From Minisyncoccia bacterium (lineage in GTDB: Bacteria; Patescibacteriota; Minisyncoccia; Phycocordibacterales; JAACPR01), in contig JBGSLH010000012.1 in assembly GCA_041740795.1 (NCBI GenBank), positions 19,146 to 83,145 of the forward strand: a stretch of 64,000 bases of DNA. The letters are read 5' to 3'. The position numbers and the translations under genes were made by a program. Of this stretch, positions 4,583 through 63,112 are shown in pieces (the first letter of the stretch is position 1; each line of letters begins with the position of its first letter). The notes below the pieces were generated by a model that worked only from the letters and a program-made list of their open reading frames with translations, was not told the DNA's origin and ran no database searches.

Positions 4583-5675
4583 TCCAGTCCAGGCGACATA
4601 CATCTTTATCTGTATTGGGATTATTCTGCTTGCTTGTTCGATGAAGCGACGCAGTACAGACGGACTTTCTAATTCGGTAAGTACGGAGCTCAAGGGTTTT
4701 GCCATTCTAATGGTTATCTTCGCGCACATTGGATACATCCTGTCGAAGCAGCATGAGTTTCTTTTTCCGATATCCATTCTTGCAGGTGTCGGAGTAAACT
4801 TATTTCTTTTTCTTTCAGGTTATGGACTAACAATTAGTCAGATCAAAAAAAATGAATCAATTCTCAAATTCTATAAAAAAAGATTGCCTAAGCTATTCGT
4901 CCCATTCTGGATAGTTCTTGTGGTACTTCTTGTGCTTGATTATGTCACGCTCGACATTGTTTATACTCACCAATCCATTCTCAAAGCGTTCCTCGGAATC
5001 TTCACGCAGGCAGATGCACTCCGAGACATCAATTCTCCGATGTGGTATTTTACGCTCATCCTCGTCTACTATCTTCTCTTTCCCTTGTTATTTTCAAAAA
5101 GATATCCGTGGATATCGGCGATCATATTGTATTTTTTCACATGGTATGTCCTGTATCTCAAACTAGATTTTTTCAAGGATGTCTTGACGCTCTACAAGGT
5201 TCACTTACTGGCGTTTCCTCTTGGGATGGTCGGAGCGTGGTTTTCTCTGAGAGAAAACCAGTTTTCCCAAAAACTTTTTTCAAAAATAAAAGAACTGTAT
5301 GTGCGATTTGAAAAATATCTTCACTCAATCCTTGTTGTGGTTCTTTTGTTCATAATCGGATACACTGCAATTCATTCGGGAGTAGGCGAGAAGCCTCTCA
5401 TTGAGCAGACGATCAGTCTTGTGACAATGTTTGCTGTAATTCTTTTATTCATTATCAAAAAATACGAGTTCAGAATCCTTACTATCTTAGGAATCTACTC
5501 GTATGAGATCTACCTGTTCCATTGGCCACTTATGTATCGATACGATTTGTTCTACAAGTATGTTCCTGCCTGGCTGGCGACACTTCTGTATTTTTTCGTA
5601 TTTATTGGATTGGCACGGGTTCTTAAGAAAGTTTCCAATCGTGTAATACATGTACGACAAAACCCAAAAATCTGA
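4563..5675 (+). CDS. Acyltransferase family 3 (O-acyltransferase) membrane protein
   Basis: LKGFAILMVIFAHIGY near the N-terminus and about 10 hydrophobic segments. Overlaps the SGNH gene by 20 nt. Confidence 0.8.
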   Translation: MTVSIINPVQATYIFICIGIILLACSMKRRSTDGLSNSVSTELKGFAILMVIFAHIGYILSKQHEFLFPISILAGVGVNLFLFLSGYGLTISQIKKNESILKFYKKRLPKLFVPFWIVLVVLLVLDYVTLDIVYTHQSILKAFLGIFTQADALRDINSPMWYFTLILVYYLLFPLLFSKRYPWISAIILYFFTWYVLYLKLDFFKDVLTLYKVHLLAFPLGMVGAWFSLRENQFSQKLFSKIKELYVRFEKYLHSILVVVLLFIIGYTAIHSGVGEKPLIEQTISLVTMFAVILLFIIKKYEFRILTILGIYSYEIYLFHWPLMYRYDLFYKYVPAWLATLLYFFVFIGLARVLKKVSNRVIHVRQNPKI

Positions 5676-17145: not shown

Positions 17146-17887
17146 TTTGAATTTTATTTACTTTAATTTTTTTAATGCGCTCGAACAAAACTATTATCAG
17201 GACAACGAATAACCAGATTATCAGAAAACCAACGAACCTATTTTGATTACCCTTTATTATAAATAAATTAAACAATGCATGCAATACGGTTGCGAGAATA
17301 AAACCAATTCCAATATATCTTCTTCTGATGGATCGCATAAAAAAAAGAGAGTAACCCATGAACATTCCGATCAGTGCGGAGCATGATATATGCACGAGTG
17401 TTGCTCCGATAAACCTGAGGCTTGTTGTGTTGATAATACTCTCGTTGTTGATAATAGTTGTTGCCAAAAAAAGCGTATTCTCAAGCGCCGCGAATCCAAG
17501 CGCTGCAGAAATCATATAGATAGGAACATCCACTGCTTCGTCGGTGATTGCTTTGCCTAGTCCTCCATTCCATGCTGCTTTGTATTTTACGTATTCTTCG
17601 ATTGCAGCCCATACGAATATGACCGCAAAAGCATAGACAAAGGGAAATTCTCCAACTGCTTCGGTATTGGGTATTGAAAACAGGGAATTGAATAAAAGTT
17701 GGAAGATAAATGCAAAAGGTACTGACAGTGCGCCGTAAAAAAAGGTCATCAGGATGTATTGAGGAGGTTCGGGGTGTTCACTGTCTTCTCGAAGCCAGAA
17801 CCAGAGCCACACAAAAGCGGGAACTGTTCCAAGTAGGAATGCAAAAAAGATTGTATTGAATATTTCCATTGTTATTGAAGTGGCCAA
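17111..17887 (-). CDS. PrsW family intramembrane metalloprotease
   Basis: AIEEYVKYKAA, ALENTLF and VLHALFN motifs on a polytopic membrane protein. Confidence 0.75.
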   Translation of the reverse strand: MATSITMEIFNTIFFAFLLGTVPAFVWLWFWLREDSEHPEPPQYILMTFFYGALSVPFAFIFQLLFNSLFSIPNTEAVGEFPFVYAFAVIFVWAAIEEYVKYKAAWNGGLGKAITDEAVDVPIYMISAALGFAALENTLFLATTIINNESIINTTSLRFIGATLVHISCSALIGMFMGYSLFFMRSIRRRYIGIGFILATVLHALFNLFIIKGNQNRFVGFLIIWLFVVLIIVLFERIKKIKVNKIQNVREKEKKDIN

Positions 17888-20067
17888 CGACTCACTATAA
17901 GCATTGTATTATCTTTGTGGATTGTTTGCCAGATTTCTTCGGTGATAAAGGGCATGAATGGGTGGAGTGCCTTGAGTTGATCTGTTAGAAGTGTTCGGAG
18001 CGTATACTGCGCTGACTTCTTGTCTTCCTCTGATACTGACTCTACTATTCTTTTTTTGCAGTCTTCTATGATAACGTCTGCAAATCTGTGCCAGAAGAAA
18101 TGATATAACTTCTCGCTTACGAGATAGAGTTTGTACTCTTCCATTTCTTTTGTGATTTCTGCAAGAAGCGTCTGAAATTCTTCGAGGTATGCTTGGTCTT
18201 GCGTCGCGAGAGATGCGGGCTTCTCGATGTTTTCATCTGAAGTCTGTTCAAGTACGAATCTTGTCGCGTTCCATATCTTGTTTGCAAACTTCTTGTATGC
18301 GCGGATCTTGTCTTCAGAAAAATTCACGTCGCTCCCAGGACCCGTTCCTACAAGCATAGACATTCGTAGTGCATCAGCTCCATATTTTTCTATCATATCG
18401 ATTGGATCAACCGCGTTTCCGATGGATTTACTCATCTTTTTCCCTTTGGCATCTCGCACGAGTCCATGAAGGTAGACCGTCTTGAAAGGAATTTCACCAA
18501 GCAGGTATGTACTCATAAGAATCATTCGTGCTACCCAAAAAAATATGATATCGTATCCCGTCTCGAGGAGGTTTGTCGGATGATATGTCTTGAAGTCTGC
18601 AGTTTCGTCTGGCCATCCAAGTGTAGAGAACGTCCACAGCGCGGAAGAGAACCAGGTGTCTAGTGTATCTTCGTCTTGTGTCCATGAGTCGTCATTTGGA
18701 TTTTCTCCGATCTGCATTGCACCATCCTTGTACCAGACAGGGATTCGGTGTCCGTACCAGATCTGCCGTGAGATACACCAGTCACGCAGATTGTCGATCC
18801 AGTGGAAATATGTCTTTGAGAAACGGTCGGGGAGAATCTCGATTTGATCGGAGGAGACAACATGTTGCATCAGTTCCTTGAGTGAAACTTCTTGTCCTAC
18901 ACTGATTCCTTTAAGATTAGATTTTGCGAGTTTGAATTTTTTGGTTACGTCGACGAACCATTGTAGCTTGGGAAGCGGTTCGATAATTGCACCGGTTCGT
19001 TCTGCAGTCGAGATGTTTTGTTCGATTTCCTTTTCATCAACCAGTAGGTTCTGTTCTCTAAGCCATTCGACTGTCTTGATTCGTGCTTCTTCAACCTTGA
19101 GTCCGTTTACGAGTTCGCTTGTTGTCTGCATCTTGGCATATTCGTTGATGACTTGTTTGAGTGGAAGATCGTTCCGGATCGCCATGTCATAGTCGACTTG
19201 AGAGTGTGCCGGAGTTACTCCGAGGGCACCTGTCCCGAACTCAGGTTCCACATGCTCATCCGCGATGATTTGGATTGAAAGTTTTTCTCCTGCAAAATCT
19301 ATATCGAAAGTTTGCCCAATGTATGTTTGGTATCGTGTATCGTCTGGATGTACAGCAACCGCAGTGTCCCCGAATTTCGTTTCTGGTCGCGTAGTTGAGA
19401 TTGCAATAGGGAAGTCCGTACTGTATTTGAAAGTGTACAAAAAAGCCTTTCGTGTTTCATACACGATCTCGTCATCAGAGATTACAGTCTGACCCTTTGG
19501 GTCCCAGTTGATTACTTTTTCTTTTCGATAGATCAGTCCGTCCTCGTACATTTTTTTGAATGCTGCATGTACCGCCTTTTCTCTTTGTGCATCAAGTGTA
19601 AAAGCTTCGCGTGACCAGTCAACGGAGGCACCCATCGCCTTGATTTGTGTCGTGATGGTGTCGTGACTCTCTTGTGCAAACGCATTCACTTCGGCGAGAA
19701 AAGCCTCGCGACCGAGATCATGCTTTCGTTTGCCGTCCTTGAGGAGTAATTTTTCTACTTTGGTTTGAGTTGCTATCGCTGCATGATCCGTTCCTGGTAT
19801 CCAAAGAGTTTTTTTGCCTCGCATGCGCTCGAACCTGATGATCGTATCTTGGATCGCGAGCATTGACGCGTGTCCGAGATGGAGTACTCCTGTTACGTTA
19901 GGAGGAGGAAGTACAATTGAAAAAGGTTCCGCGTCTGCAGAAGTCACACCTTCTCGAACGCAGATGTCTGGATTAAAAAAGTTAGACTTTTGCCACAAAT
20001 CATAGATATTTGATTCAACCTCCTTGGGTTCGTACGGTTTAAGGAATTTGTCGCTCATGTAGAACAT
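17872..20067 (-). CDS. valS: Valyl-tRNA synthetase (short form, 731 aa)
   Basis: PPPNVTGVLHLGHA, TDHAAIATQ, KMSKSIGN. No long C-terminal coiled coil. Confidence 0.9.
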   Translation of the reverse strand: MFYMSDKFLKPYEPKEVESNIYDLWQKSNFFNPDICVREGVTSADAEPFSIVLPPPNVTGVLHLGHASMLAIQDTIIRFERMRGKKTLWIPGTDHAAIATQTKVEKLLLKDGKRKHDLGREAFLAEVNAFAQESHDTITTQIKAMGASVDWSREAFTLDAQREKAVHAAFKKMYEDGLIYRKEKVINWDPKGQTVISDDEIVYETRKAFLYTFKYSTDFPIAISTTRPETKFGDTAVAVHPDDTRYQTYIGQTFDIDFAGEKLSIQIIADEHVEPEFGTGALGVTPAHSQVDYDMAIRNDLPLKQVINEYAKMQTTSELVNGLKVEEARIKTVEWLREQNLLVDEKEIEQNISTAERTGAIIEPLPKLQWFVDVTKKFKLAKSNLKGISVGQEVSLKELMQHVVSSDQIEILPDRFSKTYFHWIDNLRDWCISRQIWYGHRIPVWYKDGAMQIGENPNDDSWTQDEDTLDTWFSSALWTFSTLGWPDETADFKTYHPTNLLETGYDIIFFWVARMILMSTYLLGEIPFKTVYLHGLVRDAKGKKMSKSIGNAVDPIDMIEKYGADALRMSMLVGTGPGSDVNFSEDKIRAYKKFANKIWNATRFVLEQTSDENIEKPASLATQDQAYLEEFQTLLAEITKEMEEYKLYLVSEKLYHFFWHRFADVIIEDCKKRIVESVSEEDKKSAQYTLRTLLTDQLKALHPFMPFITEEIWQTIHKDNTMLIVSRWPLQ

Positions 20068-20386: not shown

Positions 20387-21601
20387 TCAGTATGACAGGT
20401 TGCCCTGAGCCGTTATTTCTGGGTTAATCGTGGCCATCGTATTGAGAGACTCGATCGCACCAGCAACTGCAATCATCTGTGCGTTGTCGGTGGAATCGGA
20501 TATCTTGGGCAAAAGGAGAGGAATTTTCATTTGATGAGCAAGTTGTTCCACTTGTGTTCTAAGGTAAGTATTAGCAATGACACCACCAGATATTATGAGG
20601 GTTTTGTACTCACCTTGTTCAAATGCCTTGTTGATTTTGTACAAAATGACATCTGTGATTGCCTGTTCAAACTCGTGCGCAATGTTCATTTTAAGGGTAT
20701 CGGTAAGAGTCTCGATCTCCTTCACTTTGTAGAGTACGGAAGTTTTTAGTCCTGAAAATGAAAAGTCCAAGTCCTTGGTGTGGAGCATCGGACGAGGAAA
20801 CGTGAAGTCGCCGCTGCCGATACTTGAGTGCCGAGCGAGCGCAGCGAGCTCGGCGATCTTGGGTCCGCCAGGATATTCAAGTCCGATCATACGCGCGACT
20901 TTGTCGTACGATTCTCCGATTGCATCGTCTTTTGTTTTTCCTATAATTGTAAAGTCAGAAACGGAATTCATTTCGACAAGTTCGGTATGTCCGCCCGAGA
21001 TCAGGAATGCGAGTGTTGGGAACTTGATCTCTGTCTGGTTAAGTAGTACAGAAAATATATGCCCCTTCATATGGTTGGCTGGAACGAGCGGAATATTCCA
21101 GTACAGAGAAAGTGCGCGCGCAAAGCTGATGCCGACCCAGAGAGCTGGCTCGAGTCCTGGGCCTTGGGTAACTGTTAATAGATCAATGTCAGGCTTGGGA
21201 TACTTCAGAAGAAGCTCCTTGGTTTTTTCAAAAAGTCCGACTTCGCGTTCGAGGAGTTTTTCTATCTGAGACCACCTGTCATCCTGCACAGATTCGTCGG
21301 TAGACGAATCGTGTTGTGGGACCATGTTAGAATAATCACGAGATCCCGCATCTTCGCCTGTCTGCGACAGACTTCGTGCGGGATGACATGTTAATATTTT
21401 TTCCAACAACAAAGGTAACCACTTCGCATGTTCTCTTTTTGCAACTGCAGGGAAGACACCTCCGAATTCTTTATGGATGTCGATTTGTGAAAAGAGTTCA
21501 CTTTGAATCTCTCGCGCCGTGATACGTGTATCAGAAATCTGCACGTCTACAAGAGCGATACCTGTCTCATCACAAGATGTTTCTATTGCGAGGATTTTCA
21601 T
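20387..21601 (-). CDS. tsaD: tRNA N6-adenosine threonylcarbamoyltransferase TsaD (404 aa, with an internal insertion)
   Basis: MKILAIETSCDETGIALV, GPGLEPAL, SGGHTELV, ISGGVIAN. Confidence 0.9.
   Translation of the reverse strand: MKILAIETSCDETGIALVDVQISDTRITAREIQSELFSQIDIHKEFGGVFPAVAKREHAKWLPLLLEKILTCHPARSLSQTGEDAGSRDYSNMVPQHDSSTDESVQDDRWSQIEKLLEREVGLFEKTKELLLKYPKPDIDLLTVTQGPGLEPALWVGISFARALSLYWNIPLVPANHMKGHIFSVLLNQTEIKFPTLAFLISGGHTELVEMNSVSDFTIIGKTKDDAIGESYDKVARMIGLEYPGGPKIAELAALARHSSIGSGDFTFPRPMLHTKDLDFSFSGLKTSVLYKVKEIETLTDTLKMNIAHEFEQAITDVILYKINKAFEQGEYKTLIISGGVIANTYLRTQVEQLAHQMKIPLLLPKISDSTDNAQMIAVAGAIESLNTMATINPEITAQGNLSY
21278..21387 (-). mobile_element. Composite palindromic element inserted in frame in tsaD
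   Basis: On the + strand: GTCATCCTGCA..TGTGGGA, a loop, then CGAGATCCCGCA..TGCGGGATGAC. Translated through as HPARSLSQTGEDAGSRDYSNMVPQHDSSTDESVQDD. Homologous to 62721-62832. Confidence 0.7.
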
Positions 21602-29345: not shown

Positions 29346-29416
29346 ACTTCCATGTATTGTAGTGCTTTTTTGTGAAATTTGAAAGTAAAAGTTTGGGAAA
29401 AGTAGAAGTCTTAACT

Positions 29417-29787
29417 CGTCATTCCCGCGAAGGCGGGAATCCAGGCTTTATTTTTTCTTGAGCAAGGGATCGTATTATTAAAAACATGAAGGAAAGTTAC
29501 GTATACATACTTGCCAGCGATAGAAACGGAACTTTATATGTTGGTGTAACAAGTGATCTTGATAAAAGAATACAGGAACATAAATTAAAGATACGAAAGA
29601 GCTTTACGCAAAAATATAATGTAGATAAGTTGGTTTATTACGAGGTACATTTTGATATTCAGACCGCAATTCATAGAGAAAAGTGTATAAAGAAATGGAA
29701 TAGAAAGTGGAAGATAGATCTTGTTGAAAGTATGAATTTGCAATGGGAAGACCTGAAACCTGGATTCCCGCCTTCGCGGGAATGACG
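29417..29787 (+). mobile_element. GIY-YIG gene bracketed by exact 29-bp inverted hairpin repeats
   Basis: CGTCATTCCCGCGAAGGCGGGAATCCAGG at 29417-29445 is the exact reverse complement of 29759-29787. Each arm is itself a hairpin, ATTCCCGC-GAAG-GCGGGAAT. Confidence 0.7.
29486..29785 (+). CDS. GIY-YIG nuclease superfamily protein (YhbQ/UPF0213-like)
   Basis: YVYILASDRNGTLYVGVTSDLDKRIQEH. The C-terminal residues PGFPPSRE and the stop codon are encoded by the right repeat. Confidence 0.85.
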   Translation: MKESYVYILASDRNGTLYVGVTSDLDKRIQEHKLKIRKSFTQKYNVDKLVYYEVHFDIQTAIHREKCIKKWNRKWKIDLVESMNLQWEDLKPGFPPSRE

Positions 29788-29792
29788 TGTTG

Positions 29793-30188
29793 CTAAAACT
29801 CAATTTCAATATCAAAATATTTCTTCATAAAAAAACTTTCCTTTGCACTCATTTCGTCGCTGTGATCAAAACCTTTGAGATGAAGCATGGAGTGAATAAG
29901 GAGATAATAGAGATAGTTTGTCACGGAAAGATCGAACTTGGGAGCCTCAAGTCGAGCTGTCTTTGGATTTAAAAAAATTTCTCCCATGGTCTCGTCGATC
30001 GGGAATGAAAGCACGTTGGGAATATAATCCTTGCCACGATATTCCTTGTTGAGCGAGTGTGCCCGTTTTTCACCAACAACAACAATGGACACATCGTACG
30101 ATGTGTCCAATATGTCGTCTGCTATTTTTTGCAAAAGAGTTTCTGAAAGGGGAAGTTCCTGTTTTGTTGTATTAGAAAAATCCAACAT
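29793..30188 (-). CDS. ybeY: rRNA maturation endoribonuclease YbeY
   Basis: Zinc motif HSMLHLKGFDH. Confidence 0.85.
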   Translation of the reverse strand: MLDFSNTTKQELPLSETLLQKIADDILDTSYDVSIVVVGEKRAHSLNKEYRGKDYIPNVLSFPIDETMGEIFLNPKTARLEAPKFDLSVTNYLYYLLIHSMLHLKGFDHSDEMSAKESFFMKKYFDIEIEF

Positions 30189-30440: not shown

Positions 30441-30485
30441 ATAGTGTCTTACGTTATCACGAATCTTAAAAACATGCAATTAGCA

Positions 30486-30624
30486 CGTCATCCCCGCGAA
30501 GGCGGGGATCCAGTCCATAGTAGAAAAATATTATTGGGGTTGTGTAAAGACTAGTTACTACTGTTCTCTGAAAGTTACTGTTTAACGCAAGTGATCCTGG
30601 ATTCCCGCCTCCGCGGGAATGACA
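30486..30624. repeat. ORF-less inverted doublet of the hairpin repeat
   Basis: CGTCATCCCCGCGAAGGCGGGGATCCAG at 30486-30513 and CCTGGATTCCCGCCTCCGCGGGAATGACA at 30596-30624, in inverted orientation, 82 bp apart. Confidence 0.75.
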
Positions 30625-30631
30625 GCTCACA

Positions 30632-32433: not shown

Positions 32434-32973
32434 ATGAAAATTCTCGTAGGGCTCGGGAACATCGGAGAAAAATACGTAGGCACAAGACACAATGTCGGAC
32501 GCGATTTTCTTTTCTGGTTTGCACGCAAGCATGACTTTTCCGAATTCAAGAAGGATTCTTTTCTCAAGGCACTCGTATCACAAGGAGAAATCGGTAATAA
32601 AAAATATATTTTCGTACTACCTGAGACATATATGAATCTTTCAGGACAAACAGTGAAGCATATTTTTGAAAAATGGACTGACACAACAAAGGAAGAAGTG
32701 ATGATTATCCATGATGACATCGACATTAATTTTGGCGAGATCAAAGTATCCAAGGACTCTGGTCACGGAGGGCATAATGGTGTGAAATCGATCCAGCAGG
32801 AAACAAAGGAGAACTTCATACGCATAAGAATCGGCATCTGTCCTAGGACATTTCTGGGTGGATATAAAAAACCGCACAAGGAAGAGGTTGCGGATTTTGT
32901 ATTGAAGAAGTTTGGGATGTTGGAGAGGAGGGAAGTGGAGACTGTGTATAGGAAAGTGGAAGGGTTGGTATAA
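32434..32973 (+). CDS. pth: Peptidyl-tRNA hydrolase
   Basis: MKILVGLGNIGEKYVGTRHNVG. TGCTATAGT box 8 nt before the ATG. Confidence 0.9.
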   Translation: MKILVGLGNIGEKYVGTRHNVGRDFLFWFARKHDFSEFKKDSFLKALVSQGEIGNKKYIFVLPETYMNLSGQTVKHIFEKWTDTTKEEVMIIHDDIDINFGEIKVSKDSGHGGHNGVKSIQQETKENFIRIRIGICPRTFLGGYKKPHKEEVADFVLKKFGMLERREVETVYRKVEGLV

Positions 32974-32974
32974 G

Positions 32975-33007
32975 AGAAAAGGCGCGCCCGAAGGGCGCGC
33001 CTTTTCT
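32975..33007. terminator. Bidirectional terminator
   Basis: AAAAGGCGCGCCC-GAA-GGGCGCGCCTTTT, between the convergent pth and rpsA. Confidence 0.7.
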
Positions 33008-33051
33008 CTTCTGTTTATTACGAGATTCCGGAATAAATCCGGGATGACAGA

Positions 33052-34185: not shown

Positions 34186-34322
34186 ATAATCCCGTATGTA
34201 GTTAAGATAGAAGATTCTACCAGCTCATACATACACTCGTGGTCGCATACGCAGGGTTACTCTGTTTTGTTCTAATAAAACTGAGTAGGGTAAAAGTACC
34301 ATATAAATAGGGAAATGGGAAG

Positions 34323-34374
34323 GGATTCCCCGCGCTCCGACCGAGGGATTCCCCTCGGTCGGAGCGCGGGGACG
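34323..34374. repeat. Expanded copy of the hairpin repeat (20-bp perfect stem)
   Basis: CCCCGCGCTCCGACCGAGGG-ATTC-CCCTCGGTCGGAGCGCGGGG, with GGATTCCCCGCG / CGCGGGGACG outer arms like the 30486 copy. Confidence 0.75.
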
Positions 34375-50083: not shown

Positions 50084-52771
50084 ATGCAACCATTCAAAAA
50101 TTTTACATCAAAAGCAAAGGAAGTTATCCGCCACGCGCATGAACTTGCAATAGAACGGGGACAGAACCACGTGAATCCAATCCACTTGCTTCTTGCGCTT
50201 CTTCTGCAAGAAGAAAGCCTTATCGGATCAATTGTTGAAAAACTCGAGATAGACATCGTGCTCCTCACCGACATGTTGCTTGAAGCGATCGATGTTCCTG
50301 ACACAGGACACACTCTGTCACCTTCGTATCAGGTATATCTTGCTCCCGAACTTGCACAGGCAATCGAATATTCAACCAAGATCGCAGCAACGCTCAAAGA
50401 CGAATTCGTTTCTACTGAGCATCTTTTTCTCGCATTATTTGAAGTACCAAGTCGTGCCAAGGACATGCTTGCAAAGTTCAAGATCACGCGCGACGATGTT
50501 GTGCATATTCTTTCTGAAATAAAAACTGGAAAGGCGAAGATGTCTGAAACGACAAAGACGATGAAATCGATTCGCAAGTACACCGTGAGTCTTACTCAAA
50601 AAGCACGAGAAAACAAAATCGATCCTGTAATAGGACGAGACAAGGAGATCAATCGAATTATCCAGATTCTTTCACGTCGAACTAAGAACAATCCAATTCT
50701 CATCGGAGAAGCAGGAGTCGGTAAGACTGCTATCGTCGAAGGTCTTGCAAATAGAATCGTGCAAGGTGACATTCCTGAATCTCTTAAGGACAAAGAACTC
50801 GTGTCACTGGATCTTGGTGCGCTTGTTGCAGGAACCAAATACCGTGGAGAGTTCGAAGATCGACTCAAGAAGATTCTCAAAGAAGTGACGCAAGCACAGG
50901 GTAAGATTATTCTTTTTATTGATGAGATCCATACACTCGCAGGAGCCGGAGCTTCGGAAGGTTCTCTCGATGCATCCAATATGCTCAAACCAGCTCTTGC
51001 TAGAGGAGAACTCAAGGCAATCGGTGCGACAACAATCAAGGAATACCAGAAGTATATCGAAAAAGACGCGGCGCTTACCCGAAGGTTTCAGCCAGTTACT
51101 GTTGCTGAACCAAGCATTGAAGACGCAACTGCAATTCTACGAGGTATAAAAGAAAAATACGAGCTCTATCATGGAGTACGAATTACTGATGATGCAATCG
51201 TTTCTGCTGTACAACTTTCTTCACGGTATATTACGGACCGATTCCTTCCTGACAAGGCAGTTGACCTTATCGACGAGGCTTCTTCTACGCTCAAGATCTC
51301 ACTTGAGAACATGCCAGAAGAACTCGAAGATGGACGACGAAAAATCATGCGATACGAAATCGAACGTGAGGCTCTTACTAACGAAGAAAAACCGACAAGT
51401 ATACAAAAATCTCGACTCACCAAGATTGAAAAAGAAATCGCAGATCTTAAGGAAGGAATCCGTGAGCTTGATCTCAAGTGGCAGAATGAAAAGGAAGCTA
51501 TTTCAAATATAAAAGTATTCAAGGGTGATCTCGAATCATTACGAATTGAAGCTGAACAGGCCGAAGCTCGTGCCGACCTTTCTCGTGCTGCCGAAATCAG
51601 GTATGCAACTATTCCCATGATAGAAAAAGATTTGCGTTTACAAGAGAAGCGTCTCAAGGATCTGCAAGTTTCTCGAAAGATTCTTCGAGAAGAGGTGACC
51701 GAAGAGGACATCGCATCAATTGTTGCACGTTGGACTGGAATCCCTGTTGAACGGATGCTTGAAGAAGAGGCAAGCAAGCTTGCACGCATGGAAAAGGAAC
51801 TCAAGAGGCGAATCATTGGACAAGATAATGCTGTACGTAAGGTTGCAAATGCAATCAAACGTTCACGAGCAGGAATCTCAGATCCTGATAAGCCGATTGG
51901 ATCGTTCATGTTCCTCGGACCAACCGGTGTAGGTAAGACAGAACTTACAAAAGCTCTCGCCGACTATCTCTTTGACGATGACAAAGCACTCGTGCGAGTC
52001 GACATGTCAGAGTTCATGGAAAAACATTCTGTTTCAAAACTGATAGGATCTCCTCCTGGATATGTTGGACATGACGAAGGAAGCACATTTACAGATAAAA
52101 TCAGACATCGACCGTATGCTGTAGTACTTTTTGATGAAATTGAAAAGGCTCACCCCGAAGTGTTCAATGTGTTACTCCAGGTGCTCGACAACGGAAGACT
52201 TACGGACTCAAAGGGACGAATGGTCAACTTCAAGAACACTGTAATCATCATGACTTCAAATATCGGAGCGGAACACATCGACAAGATGGAGACTATTGGA
52301 TTTGCGTCCGACAAGTCTACTAAGACGCAGTATGAAGAAACCAAAGTGAATGTCGAAAAGGCACTCAAGGATCATTTCCGTCCGGAATTTTTGAACCGAC
52401 TCGATGATGTCATCATCTTTGATATTCTTTCTGAGAAGGCAATCGAAGAGATTGTGCATATTCAGATCGAACGAGTAGGATTACGACTTCTCGAAAAACA
52501 GATCAAGATCAAACTCGCCAAGTCTGTACTCACGTTTCTTGCAAAGGAAGGATACAATCCTCATTACGGAGCACGTCCACTCAAGCGTGTGATTCAGGAT
52601 CGAATTCTCAATCCTCTTGCACAACTTATCATTGCAAAAGGTCTCGGAGTTGGAAGTACGGTAACAGTTTCTGTCAAAAACGGAGGATTTGCGTTTGATG
52701 TTGCAGGCAAAGGCAAGAAGGGGAGCCTGATGTATAAGGAAAAAGATATTACTGAAGAAGCATTGGTGTAG
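50084..52771 (+). CDS. clpB: ATP-dependent chaperone ClpB
   Basis: Clp N-terminal repeats, two AAA+ modules ([16 protein letters not shown]) and a middle coiled-coil domain. Confidence 0.95.
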
Positions 52772-58543: not shown

Positions 58544-58583
58544 GTCTTGTATAGTAGCAAAATAAAGACTTTTGTCATCCTAC

Positions 58584-58626
58584 TACAACGCCCAGAGCGT
58601 GACGTCGTCACGCTCTGGGCGTTGTA
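58584..58626. repeat. 20-bp perfect hairpin in the thrS / mazF-like divergent region
   Basis: TACAACGCCCAGAGCGTGAC-GTC-GTCACGCTCTGGGCGTTGTA, preceded by GTCATCC. Confidence 0.7.
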
Positions 58627-62383: not shown

Positions 62384-63112
62384 ATGGCAAAGGATTTAAG
62401 GTGGACAACTCAATACATCATTGGTGTAGACGAAGCAGGACGGGGCCCGCTTGCGGGCCCCGTTGCTGTCGGTGTTTCTTTTGTTCCAAAACTCTATCAA
62501 AAACAGGTATTTTCTTTTCTTAAAAAGGCAGGACTTAACGATTCTAAGCAAGTCAAAGAAGTGACTCGAGAATCACTGTATAAGACACTTGTCCAACTCA
62601 GAAAGGAACAAAAGTTAGACTGGGCAGTAACACTCGTCCCTGCAAAAATTATTTCAACCAAGGGGATTGTGTTTGCTGTTAATTTTGGAATAAAAATGGG
62701 GTTGCAGAAAGTTTTAGCACGTCATCCCGCAAGAAGTGGCTCCGTAGGAGGAACGAAAATGCGGGATCTCGCTATAAAAAATTACGAGATCCCGCAACTT
62801 CGCCGGCCTACGGCCGGCTCGTGCAGGATGACACGTAACATAGAACTCGAAATGGACGGAGCACTCAAAATTCCACCAGGAGAATGGAAAAAAGCATCAG
62901 TCATAATTAAAGGTGATTCAATTAAGCCAAGTATTATGATTGCATCTATACTTGCAAAAGTGACACGCGACAGATATATGAAAAAGATTTCAAAAATTTA
63001 TCCTCAATACTTGTTTGAAATTCACAAGGGATATGGAACCAAAAAGCATCGAGATTTGATTAAAAAATATGGAATGAACAAGGAACATCGGGTAGGGTGG
63101 TGTAAGTACTAG
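62384..63112 (+). CDS. rnhB: Ribonuclease HII (with an internal insertion)
   Basis: IIGVDEAGRGPLAGPV, KGDS, ASILAKVTRD, HKGYGT. Confidence 0.85.
   Translation: MAKDLRWTTQYIIGVDEAGRGPLAGPVAVGVSFVPKLYQKQVFSFLKKAGLNDSKQVKEVTRESLYKTLVQLRKEQKLDWAVTLVPAKIISTKGIVFAVNFGIKMGLQKVLARHPARSGSVGGTKMRDLAIKNYEIPQLRRPTAGSCRMTRNIELEMDGALKIPPGEWKKASVIIKGDSIKPSIMIASILAKVTRDRYMKKISKIYPQYLFEIHKGYGTKKHRDLIKKYGMNKEHRVGWCKY
62721..62832 (+). mobile_element. Composite palindromic element inserted in frame in rnhB
   Basis: GTCATCCCGCA..TGCGGGATCTCG, a loop, then CGAGATCCCGCA..TGCAGGATGAC. Translated as HPARSGSVGGTKMRDLAIKNYEIPQLRRPTAGSCRMT. Confidence 0.7.

Follow-up and report, generated by a model that had tools for sequence, protein, structure and literature searches.

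A probable NTS-ssn-NTS cassette of the Ssn nuclease-repeat system in a Parcubacteria/Paceibacterota genome

The Ssn/NTS system, for which biochemical and genetic work was published in March 2025 (Chenal et al., Nat Commun 2025; PMC11893778), pairs a small GIY-YIG nuclease gene with a short hairpin repeat. The repeat is the 28-nt Neisseria Transformation Sequence (NTS), CGTCATTCCCGCGMAVGCGGGAATCYRG, which carries inside it the dRS3 palindrome, a phage-recombinase target in Neisseria. Across phyla, homologues of the nuclease gene, ssnA, are flanked by NTS or by related motifs (SRM), which stand on at least one side in 71% of them and on both sides in 42% (PMC11893778). The 94-aa SsnA of Neisseria meningitidis binds the NTS hairpin as single-stranded DNA (ssDNA) only and cuts a few nucleotides upstream (5') of it, while duplex DNA, RNA and the opposite strand are left untouched; the Y6A, Y17A and E64A mutants keep binding but lose cleavage (PMC11893778). 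Three further homologues act alike, four in total, the characterised enzymes coming from Neisseria, N. elongata, N. wadsworthii and Wolbachia, and specificities vary between homologues (PMC11893778). In the cell, SsnA lowers transformation by NTS-bearing DNA. The authors liken the NTS-ssnA-NTS arrangement to an insertion sequence and to the IS200/IS605-REP/BIME and RAYT situation, raise the mobile-element idea as a hypothesis, count Rickettsia among the SRM-rich genera and never mention Patescibacteria in the main text (PMC11893778). This report concerns a 64-kb stretch of DNA (hereafter the window; contig JBGSLH010000012.1 of assembly GCA_041740795.1) in which a 99-aa GIY-YIG gene is bracketed by inverted hairpin repeats. 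An earlier reading of the window from its letters alone (the sequence-only reading) had proposed a REP/RAYT-like tie between this nuclease and the repeat.

The locus belongs, with a probability of about 0.88, to the published Ssn system, as an NTS-ssn-NTS cassette carried by a Parcubacteria/Paceibacterota genome. The sequence-only reading had described a 29-nt repeat and its exact inverted partner around the GIY-YIG open reading frame (ORF), and direct reading and pattern search both recover them; 100 shuffles of the window gave zero matches as good as the inverted CGTCATTCCCGCGAAGGCGGGAATCCAGG pair. The two cassette repeats (29417-29444 and the inverted partner) fit the NTS consensus at 28 of 28 positions and also fit the published SRM pattern, and their palindromic core, ATTCCC-N8-GGGAAT, is dRS3. 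Each arm is itself a hairpin, as had been proposed, folding with DNA parameters into an 8-bp stem and a 4-nt loop (-9.2 kcal/mol, z ~ -3). The right repeat lies 5 nt from the ybeY stop codon (29793-29795), and codon reading bears out that it supplies the end of the ORF: CCT GGA TTC CCG CCT TCG CGG GAA TGA (29759-29785), which encodes PGFPPSRE and the stop, falls entirely within the right NTS. Because of the complete agreement with the NTS consensus and the 56% identity of the protein to a Neisseria ortholog, the gene is regarded as a bona fide Ssn member and is called ssn below. Because the best named FtsA relatives of the host are Candidatus Parcubacteria/Paceibacterota, the host is taken to be a genome of the candidate phyla radiation (CPR).

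The locus shares with the described system a single-domain GIY-YIG protein of ~94-100 aa with its catalytic residues kept, the NTS consensus, the NTS-ssn-NTS order and ORF-less inverted NTS pairs nearby. The repeat, the protein family and the architecture are the same, so the distance to the known system is nil. It differs in its Parcubacteria/CPR host, in that an NTS encodes the C-terminal 8 residues and the stop codon of the protein, and in the small number of copies in the window. In-frame derivatives lie inside genes of the window, whereas 2% of NTS are intragenic in N. meningitidis (PMC11893778). The cassette is clean, with both heads outward, as in most other genomes, unlike the dense alternating array at Neisseria ssnA, where the nearest NTS face inward (upstream -, downstream +; L209, 599-2186) and the N. 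gonorrhoeae gene sits amid 16 NTS copies in 3.2 kb.

The sole Pfam domain of the 99-aa protein is GIY-YIG (PF01541, residues 4-77, E=8.7e-18). In a pairwise comparison with the 94-aa SsnA ortholog of N. gonorrhoeae (ORF L209:1489-1773), in which Y6, Y17 and E64 are numbered exactly as in PMC11893778, 48 of 85 residues are identical (56%) over an ungapped alignment (E=8e-36). A tblastn search with the window protein over the 7.3-Gb PLSDB collection returned an N. gonorrhoeae match at E=3e-25, and the protein falls within the homology criterion used for Ssn in the paper (E<1e-10). Residues Y7, Y18 and E65 align onto Y6, Y17 and E64, those mutated in SsnA, and together with R28, H32 and N84 they are invariant across 37 diverse homologues. 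In all, 7153 homologues of the window protein were detected, while a search for phage homologues found none. Many homologues end in repeat-encoded tails such as GFPPSRE, WIPSQAGND and GLPDQVGQ, others start with repeat-encoded extensions (MCHSREGGNP, MDSRFRGND), and a repeat-encoded C-terminus is common to about one third of them. The N. gonorrhoeae ortholog came from PLSDB entries NZ_CP119140.1 and NZ_CP119142.1, which are 2.17-Mb chromosomes filed as plasmids.

By sequence similarity, the protein family appears as a distinct cd10448/Ssn clade, and the earlier label YhbQ-like is imprecise. UPF0213/YhbQ proteins (1ZG2, BH0048) and Slx1 have the same small GIY-YIG domain but belong to a different subfamily with no known cognate repeat. 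The best PDB match, 1ZG2, reaches only E=0.0024 (21.7 bits) against E=8e-36 for the Ssn ortholog, and membership of UPF0213/YhbQ was rejected on this marginal value. A GIY-YIG homing endonuclease of the I-TevI type was also rejected, the match to the group I intron endonuclease model TIGR01453 scoring 23.3 bits against a cut-off of 56.05 and covering residues 4-41 only; moreover, the protein has just 99 aa, no DNA-binding domain and no intron context. It is thus very unlikely that the gene encodes a repair nuclease of the YhbQ/UPF0213 or Slx1 type, or a free-standing homing endonuclease, with no relation to the repeat: the GIY-YIG fold and these two matches speak for it, but both matches are marginal and the protein strongly resembles a characterised Ssn ortholog. 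Among the PDB matches to the window protein there is no solved Ssn structure, NCBIfam has no model naming the Ssn family, and a literature search joining GIY-YIG with YhbQ or RAYT returned nothing relevant.

The association of gene and repeat recurs in other genomes, in a protein-led as well as in a DNA-only scan, and the question raised by the sequence-only reading, whether GIY-YIG copies elsewhere are flanked by the repeat, is thereby answered in the affirmative. Among 80 metagenomic loci found through the protein, outward NTS-like hairpins stand on both sides of the gene in 30 and on at least one side in 55, both sides meaning a + hairpin within 150 nt upstream and a - hairpin at or past the stop codon. 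Within 150 bp of the gene there are 4.9 motifs per kb, and in the rest of these loci 0.09 per kb, an enrichment of ~55-fold, and the downstream NTS begins before the protein match ends in 20 of the 30 loci with NTS on both sides. The DNA-only scan, for outward NTS-N(300-330)-inverted NTS in one genome per species, gave at least 120 stretches; among the 120 matches listed, 88 encode a homologue of the window protein. The matches listed include Neisseria, Rickettsia, Sphingomonas, Lysobacter and Dehalococcoidia, and cover Pseudomonadota, Chloroflexota, Planctomycetota, Nitrospirota, Ignavibacteria, Bacteroidota and others, with Moranii-, Magasanikii- and Paceibacterota among the Patescibacteria. 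Homologues that are 55-65% identical and have the same NTS occur in many phyla. Two groups of matches proved to be without the gene: the Neisseria loci of the DNA-only scan are brackets formed by arrays of Neisseria intergenic mosaic elements (NIME) without ssnA, and three loci on one Dehalococcoidia chromosome, considered as multi-copy cassettes, are NTS arrays with no ssn (no tblastn match).

This recurrence bears on another explanation, in which the hairpins merely serve the neighbouring genes, as terminators or as stem-loops that stabilise RNA, and surround the GIY-YIG gene by coincidence. The closeness of the right NTS to the ybeY stop codon and the placement of a second hairpin pair between hisS-like and S21-like genes would fit such a role. 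However, no T-runs follow the hairpins and a terminator scan called none of them, and ssn homologues in dozens of phylogenetically distant genomes are bracketed by this same sequence of 24-28 nt, with the enrichment given above. Across NTS copies, the CGTCAT and CCAG flanks, which are not palindromic, keep their sequence and orientation, and copies also lie inside ORFs. The terminator explanation, which the sequence-only reading had itself named as one that would undo its proposal, is contradicted by the cross-genome association and by the missing T-runs and terminator calls, and is extremely unlikely.

A covariance model was built from 85 distinct NTS copies in other genomes, at loci that had been located through their ssn homologues or as brackets formed by an NTS pair. 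Run over the 64 kb with filters off, it returns just the cassette pair and a doublet pair, four copies in all (E<=2e-10), the left cassette NTS matching at 29414-29447 (50.6 bits, E=6e-12) and the right one at 29757-29790 on the minus strand (48.8 bits, E=1.9e-11). Apart from the palindromic reverse strands of those four, no other model score in the window lies below E=0.1; a weak match at 52053-52079, inside a long ORF, was rejected as chance. The published SRM pattern matches three of the four copies, against 0.23 expected in random windows, and Rfam has no family matching the window hairpins. The ORF-less doublet announced by the sequence-only reading does exist (Table 1), and the T-to-C / A-to-G change in its left copy, which had been called compensatory, is indeed a pair flagged by the covariance model. 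The entire doublet folds as a long hairpin (z=-5.2). Its interior showed in blastn-short no similarity to ssn and no conservation with the interiors of same-site doublets in relatives; a derivation of the doublet from the cassette by internal deletion was rejected on this lack of similarity to the ssn gene. In its inverted copies with variable interior, the doublet resembles NIME, whereas the window differs from the dRS3/NIME setting in lying in another phylum and in having far fewer copies. An independent short-read assembly of the same organism (Logan contig L001, 5549 bp), compared with positions 30480-30630 of the window, breaks at the S21-like gene by the doublet, and a break at such a place would fit a genome with multiple copies of the repeat.

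Table 1. Coordinates of the cassette, the doublet and the derived or probably related hairpins in the window
Feature	Position	Strand	Remarks
Whole NTS-ssn-NTS cassette, 371 bp	29417-29787	+	ybeY-ftsA spacer
Left NTS hairpin CGTCATTCCCGCGAAGGCGGGAATCCAGG	29417-29445	+	head CGTCAT outward; 40 nt upstream of ssn start codon
ssn gene, 99 aa, single-domain GIY-YIG, Ssn family (cd10448-type)	29486-29785	+	Pfam and homology
Right NTS hairpin, exact reverse complement of left	29759-29787	-	head outward
Doublet left NTS, ATCCCCGC/GCGGGGAT stem variant	30486-30514	+	3 mismatches; model match 30483-30516, 45.1 bits, E=2.2e-10
Doublet interior, 81 bp	30515-30595	.	NIME-like mosaic
Doublet right NTS, hisS-S21 spacer	30596-30624	-	2 mismatches; model match 30594-30627 (-), 45.3 bits, E=1.9e-10
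tsaD in-frame NTS-derived doublet	21277-21388	-	arms GTCATCC(C/T)GCA..., enlarged two-tier hairpin
rnhB in-frame NTS-derived doublet	62720-62835	+	CGTCATCCCGCA-(28 nt)-TGCGGGATCTCG, 13-nt spacer, inverted copy
Probable expanded NTS relative	34323-34374	-	CGTC-CCCGCG...perfect 21-bp stem...CGCGGGGAATCC; CGTC head, GGAATCC tail

Several points weigh against the assignment of the locus to the Ssn system. The comparator of the window protein is the N. gonorrhoeae ortholog, which has the length and the residue numbering of the published enzyme, and not N. meningitidis SsnA itself. Four canonical NTS per 64 kb do not make the genome obviously repeat-rich in the manner of Neisseria or Rickettsia. The stem covaries across copies, with 96.8% of positions paired and 45 double-change cells against 5.7 in shuffles, but the alignment had been pre-filtered at >=7/8 pairs, which inflates the percentage paired. 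Finally, the enzymatic activity of the window protein is inferred from homologues outside Patescibacteria, and any exact cut position would be an extrapolation, the specificities of homologues being different.

By homology, the window Ssn would recognise the NTS hairpin by sequence and stem in single-stranded DNA only, would cut the NTS strand a few nucleotides 5' of the CGTCAT head and would be inactive on duplex DNA, RNA and the complementary strand. Because both NTS heads point outward, cuts are predicted just outside both ends of the cassette, one per strand, at ~29414 on the top strand and ~29790 on the bottom strand. The role may be restriction or trimming of NTS-bearing ssDNA (e.g. incoming transforming DNA), self-propagation of the cassette and the doublets, or both. 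The earlier proposal that the GIY-YIG protein is tied in a REP/RAYT-like manner to the hairpins that bracket it, and processes them, is supported, such processing having been shown for the Ssn family (PMC11893778). That proposal had read "mobilises or processes": the second verb stands on the Ssn homologues, while the first names a possible activity only.

The likeness to REP/REPIN elements and their RAYT (TnpA_REP, IS200/IS605-like) lies in one nuclease gene between inverted short hairpin repeats, in intergenic repeat doublets, and in a hairpin that is recognised in ssDNA and cut alongside, the last being known on the Ssn side from homologues. The differences are that Ssn is a GIY-YIG hydrolase and RAYT a Y1/HUH tyrosine transesterase of unrelated fold and chemistry, that the head is GTAG in REPs and CGTCAT in NTS, and that mobilisation by Ssn is inferred only. 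Pfam gives GIY-YIG and no Y1/HUH transposase domain in the cassette ORF, so that the likeness is one of layout.

The genes around the cassette (ftsZ, ftsA, ybeY, the S21-like gene and the HisRS-like gene) are all on the minus strand, and the order HisRS-like/hisS, S21, ybeY, ftsA, ftsZ is kept in relatives whose FtsA is 87-88% identical. The cassette and the doublet are insertion/deletion polymorphisms in these close relatives. At the ybeY-ftsA locus, ssn is absent in three syntenic relatives. The spacer measures 447 bp in the window, 371 bp of it being the cassette; it is a 121-bp AT-rich stretch with zero NTS in L204/L205, 238 bp with unrelated hairpins in L206, and 96 bp with a solo perfect palindrome, TTAGCACGTCATCCTCGCCTGCGCGAGGATGACGTGCTAA, in L202/L203. 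This palindrome (L202 4905-5000, equal to L207 9905-10000 and L203 806-901) consists of the outer halves of two inverted NTS joined together, and it looks like a collapse product, such as a deletion running from the direct-repeat stem of one arm to that of the other would be expected to leave. Similar CGTCAT...ATGAC palindromes were seen in other genomes. In the hisS-S21 spacer, the window, L202 and L206 each have an NTS doublet; the interiors are unrelated, and each genome has compensatory stem variants of its own. The same spacer is 52 bp long and empty in L204. The number of NTS per 21 kb ranges from none in one relative to eight in another.

Close Ssn homologues (70-84% amino acid identity) lie between different gene pairs; the four with recorded neighbours occupy four contexts, all different, which include transketolase/ribulose-phosphate epimerase, greA/PBP and unknown/AlaRS-like pairs. 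When the window was aligned with three close cassettes, whose genomic contexts differ wherever neighbours are identifiable, the DNA homology starts ~6 nt outside CGTCAT and stops exactly at ATGACG. The homology is confined to the NTS-to-NTS segment, and therefore this segment is the unit that differs between genomes. Defined ends, presence or absence at one site and differing sites, as looked for in an insertion sequence, are all found; no target-site duplication is evident at the cassette ends in the window or in the compared cassettes. Right outside the NTS head, TTAGCA or a variant (TTAACT, TTAGGA) recurs at cassettes, doublets, the solo palindrome and the rnhB/tsaD insertions (window, L202, L207, L213), and the empty hisS-S21 site of L204 also holds TTAGCA; the motif may be an element end or a target preference. 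In L211 (~1469-1545), in the left flank of a related cassette and just outside it, about four tandem copies of TTGTTTATTTAGCACGT(C/A)AT were seen; the repeated unit corresponds to the element's left end together with the first NTS bases.

These observations raise the possibility that the cassette is an autonomous selfish mobile element, in which Ssn acts as a transposase or homing nuclease nicking outside each NTS and the doublets are MITE- or REPIN-like derivatives. Such an account agrees with the assignment to the Ssn system on the enzyme and departs from it on the purpose of the system. The missing cassette in the relatives, the different gene pairs that flank close homologues, the sharp ends of homology in the four aligned cassettes and the 55-65% identical homologues with the same NTS in many phyla are in its favour, as are the doublets that are present or absent at one site among relatives and that invade ORFs in-frame; the same hypothesis is raised in PMC11893778. 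However, no transposition, excision product or target-site duplication was seen, and the window has a single ssn copy, with no second one in the 64 kb. Furthermore, one cut is predicted on each strand, whereas the chemistry of IS200/IS605 takes place on the same strand, and a GIY-YIG hydrolase has no obvious strand-transfer activity. The doublet interiors are unrelated to ssn and so are not simple deletion derivatives, and recombination between repeats also yields insertions and deletions, the solo palindrome of L202 being its expected product. A selfish, mobile nature of the cassette is only a tentative possibility, and it is with the same reserve that NTS-ssn-NTS might be called a mobile, horizontally spreading element whose sole protein is a GIY-YIG ssDNA nickase of ~100 aa.

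If that were true, it would represent a mode of transposition or homing not yet described. The ORF-less doublets would then be non-autonomous passengers in spacers and even in-frame in tsaD and rnhB of streamlined CPR genomes, and a genus with empty, solo-palindrome, doublet and full-cassette alleles would offer a natural system for reconstructing the mechanism.

A somewhat less probable and rather unlikely alternative to self-propagation is a host-domesticated device for ssDNA restriction or trimming, in which Ssn cuts NTS strands arising from transformation or at forks and so shapes recombination. Genes for DNA-uptake machinery are common in Patescibacteria, some of which can be transformed naturally. 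The window has the same NTS and catalytic residues as Neisseria, and deletion of ssnA in N. meningitidis raises transformation ~5-fold, for NTS-bearing DNA only, an effect that is lost if the NTS is mutated (PMC11893778). However, this role has been shown in Neisseria only, and the relatives without ssn at the locus, together with the one without NTS in 21 kb, argue against a conserved host function in the genus.

As a discovery, the assignment of the locus to the Ssn system carries little weight, the link between nuclease and repeat having been published in March 2025 on both biochemical and genetic evidence. What novelty remains is modest: the CPR host, the allelic series and the in-frame derivatives in essential genes. 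A canonical Neisseria NTS together with a nuclease of 56% identity in a CPR genome underlines wide and recent movement of the pair between phyla. Allelic series at orthologous sites are the type of data needed to decide on mobility, which was left hypothetical in PMC11893778.

The sequence-only reading had also listed composite in-frame forms in tsaD and rnhB, and these proved to be real in-frame doublets. Their units consist of GTCATCCCGCA, an inner hairpin of 26-28 nt and TGCGGGATCTCG, and both insertions carry the TTAGCACGTCAT flank, as intergenic doublets do. The rnhB doublet folds with z=-5.5, and the peptides encoded by the two doublets read, e.g., CHPARS...AGSR. At the same codon position of tsaD, the relative L207 has a canonical NTS doublet (17872-17944, model E ~1e-7). 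Rickettsia palindromic elements (RPE) enter protein-coding genes without breaking the reading frame. The doublets in tsaD and rnhB, palindromic insertions that keep the frame of essential genes, are reminiscent of RPE and connect the NTS family to the long-known occurrence of palindromic elements within genes. Canonical NTS pairs were found in Rickettsia genomes by the DNA-only scan.

The remaining hairpins named by the sequence-only reading fared unevenly. Of its two expanded forms, the one at 34323-34374 is probably an NTS relative, a tentative assignment, as neither the covariance model nor the SRM pattern matches it; it is an insertion relative to L208 (~5120-5130; ACATAT|CCCTTCCC), and at the equivalent spot of L207 (~5340-5350) only CGTCATA is left. 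The other, at 33022-33049 on the minus strand (TGTCATCCCGGATTTATTCCGGAATCTC), is only weakly similar, goes undetected by model and pattern and is not supported as a copy; it is a weak, imperfect GTCAT-headed hairpin just past the pth terminator hairpin (32971-33007) and could have decayed from the NTS variant with a CCGG stem that is common elsewhere. The GTCATCC-prefixed hairpin at 58577-58626 shares just GTCATCC with the family, matches neither model nor pattern and is not retained as a copy. Beside the 34323-34374 hairpin, a non-coding stretch of ~110 nt upstream of an S1-domain gene (CAGTTTTATTAGAACAAAACAGAGTAACCCTG...), for which Rfam gave no match, is conserved between the window (~34190-34300, minus strand), L207 (5385-5500) and L208 (5150-5270).

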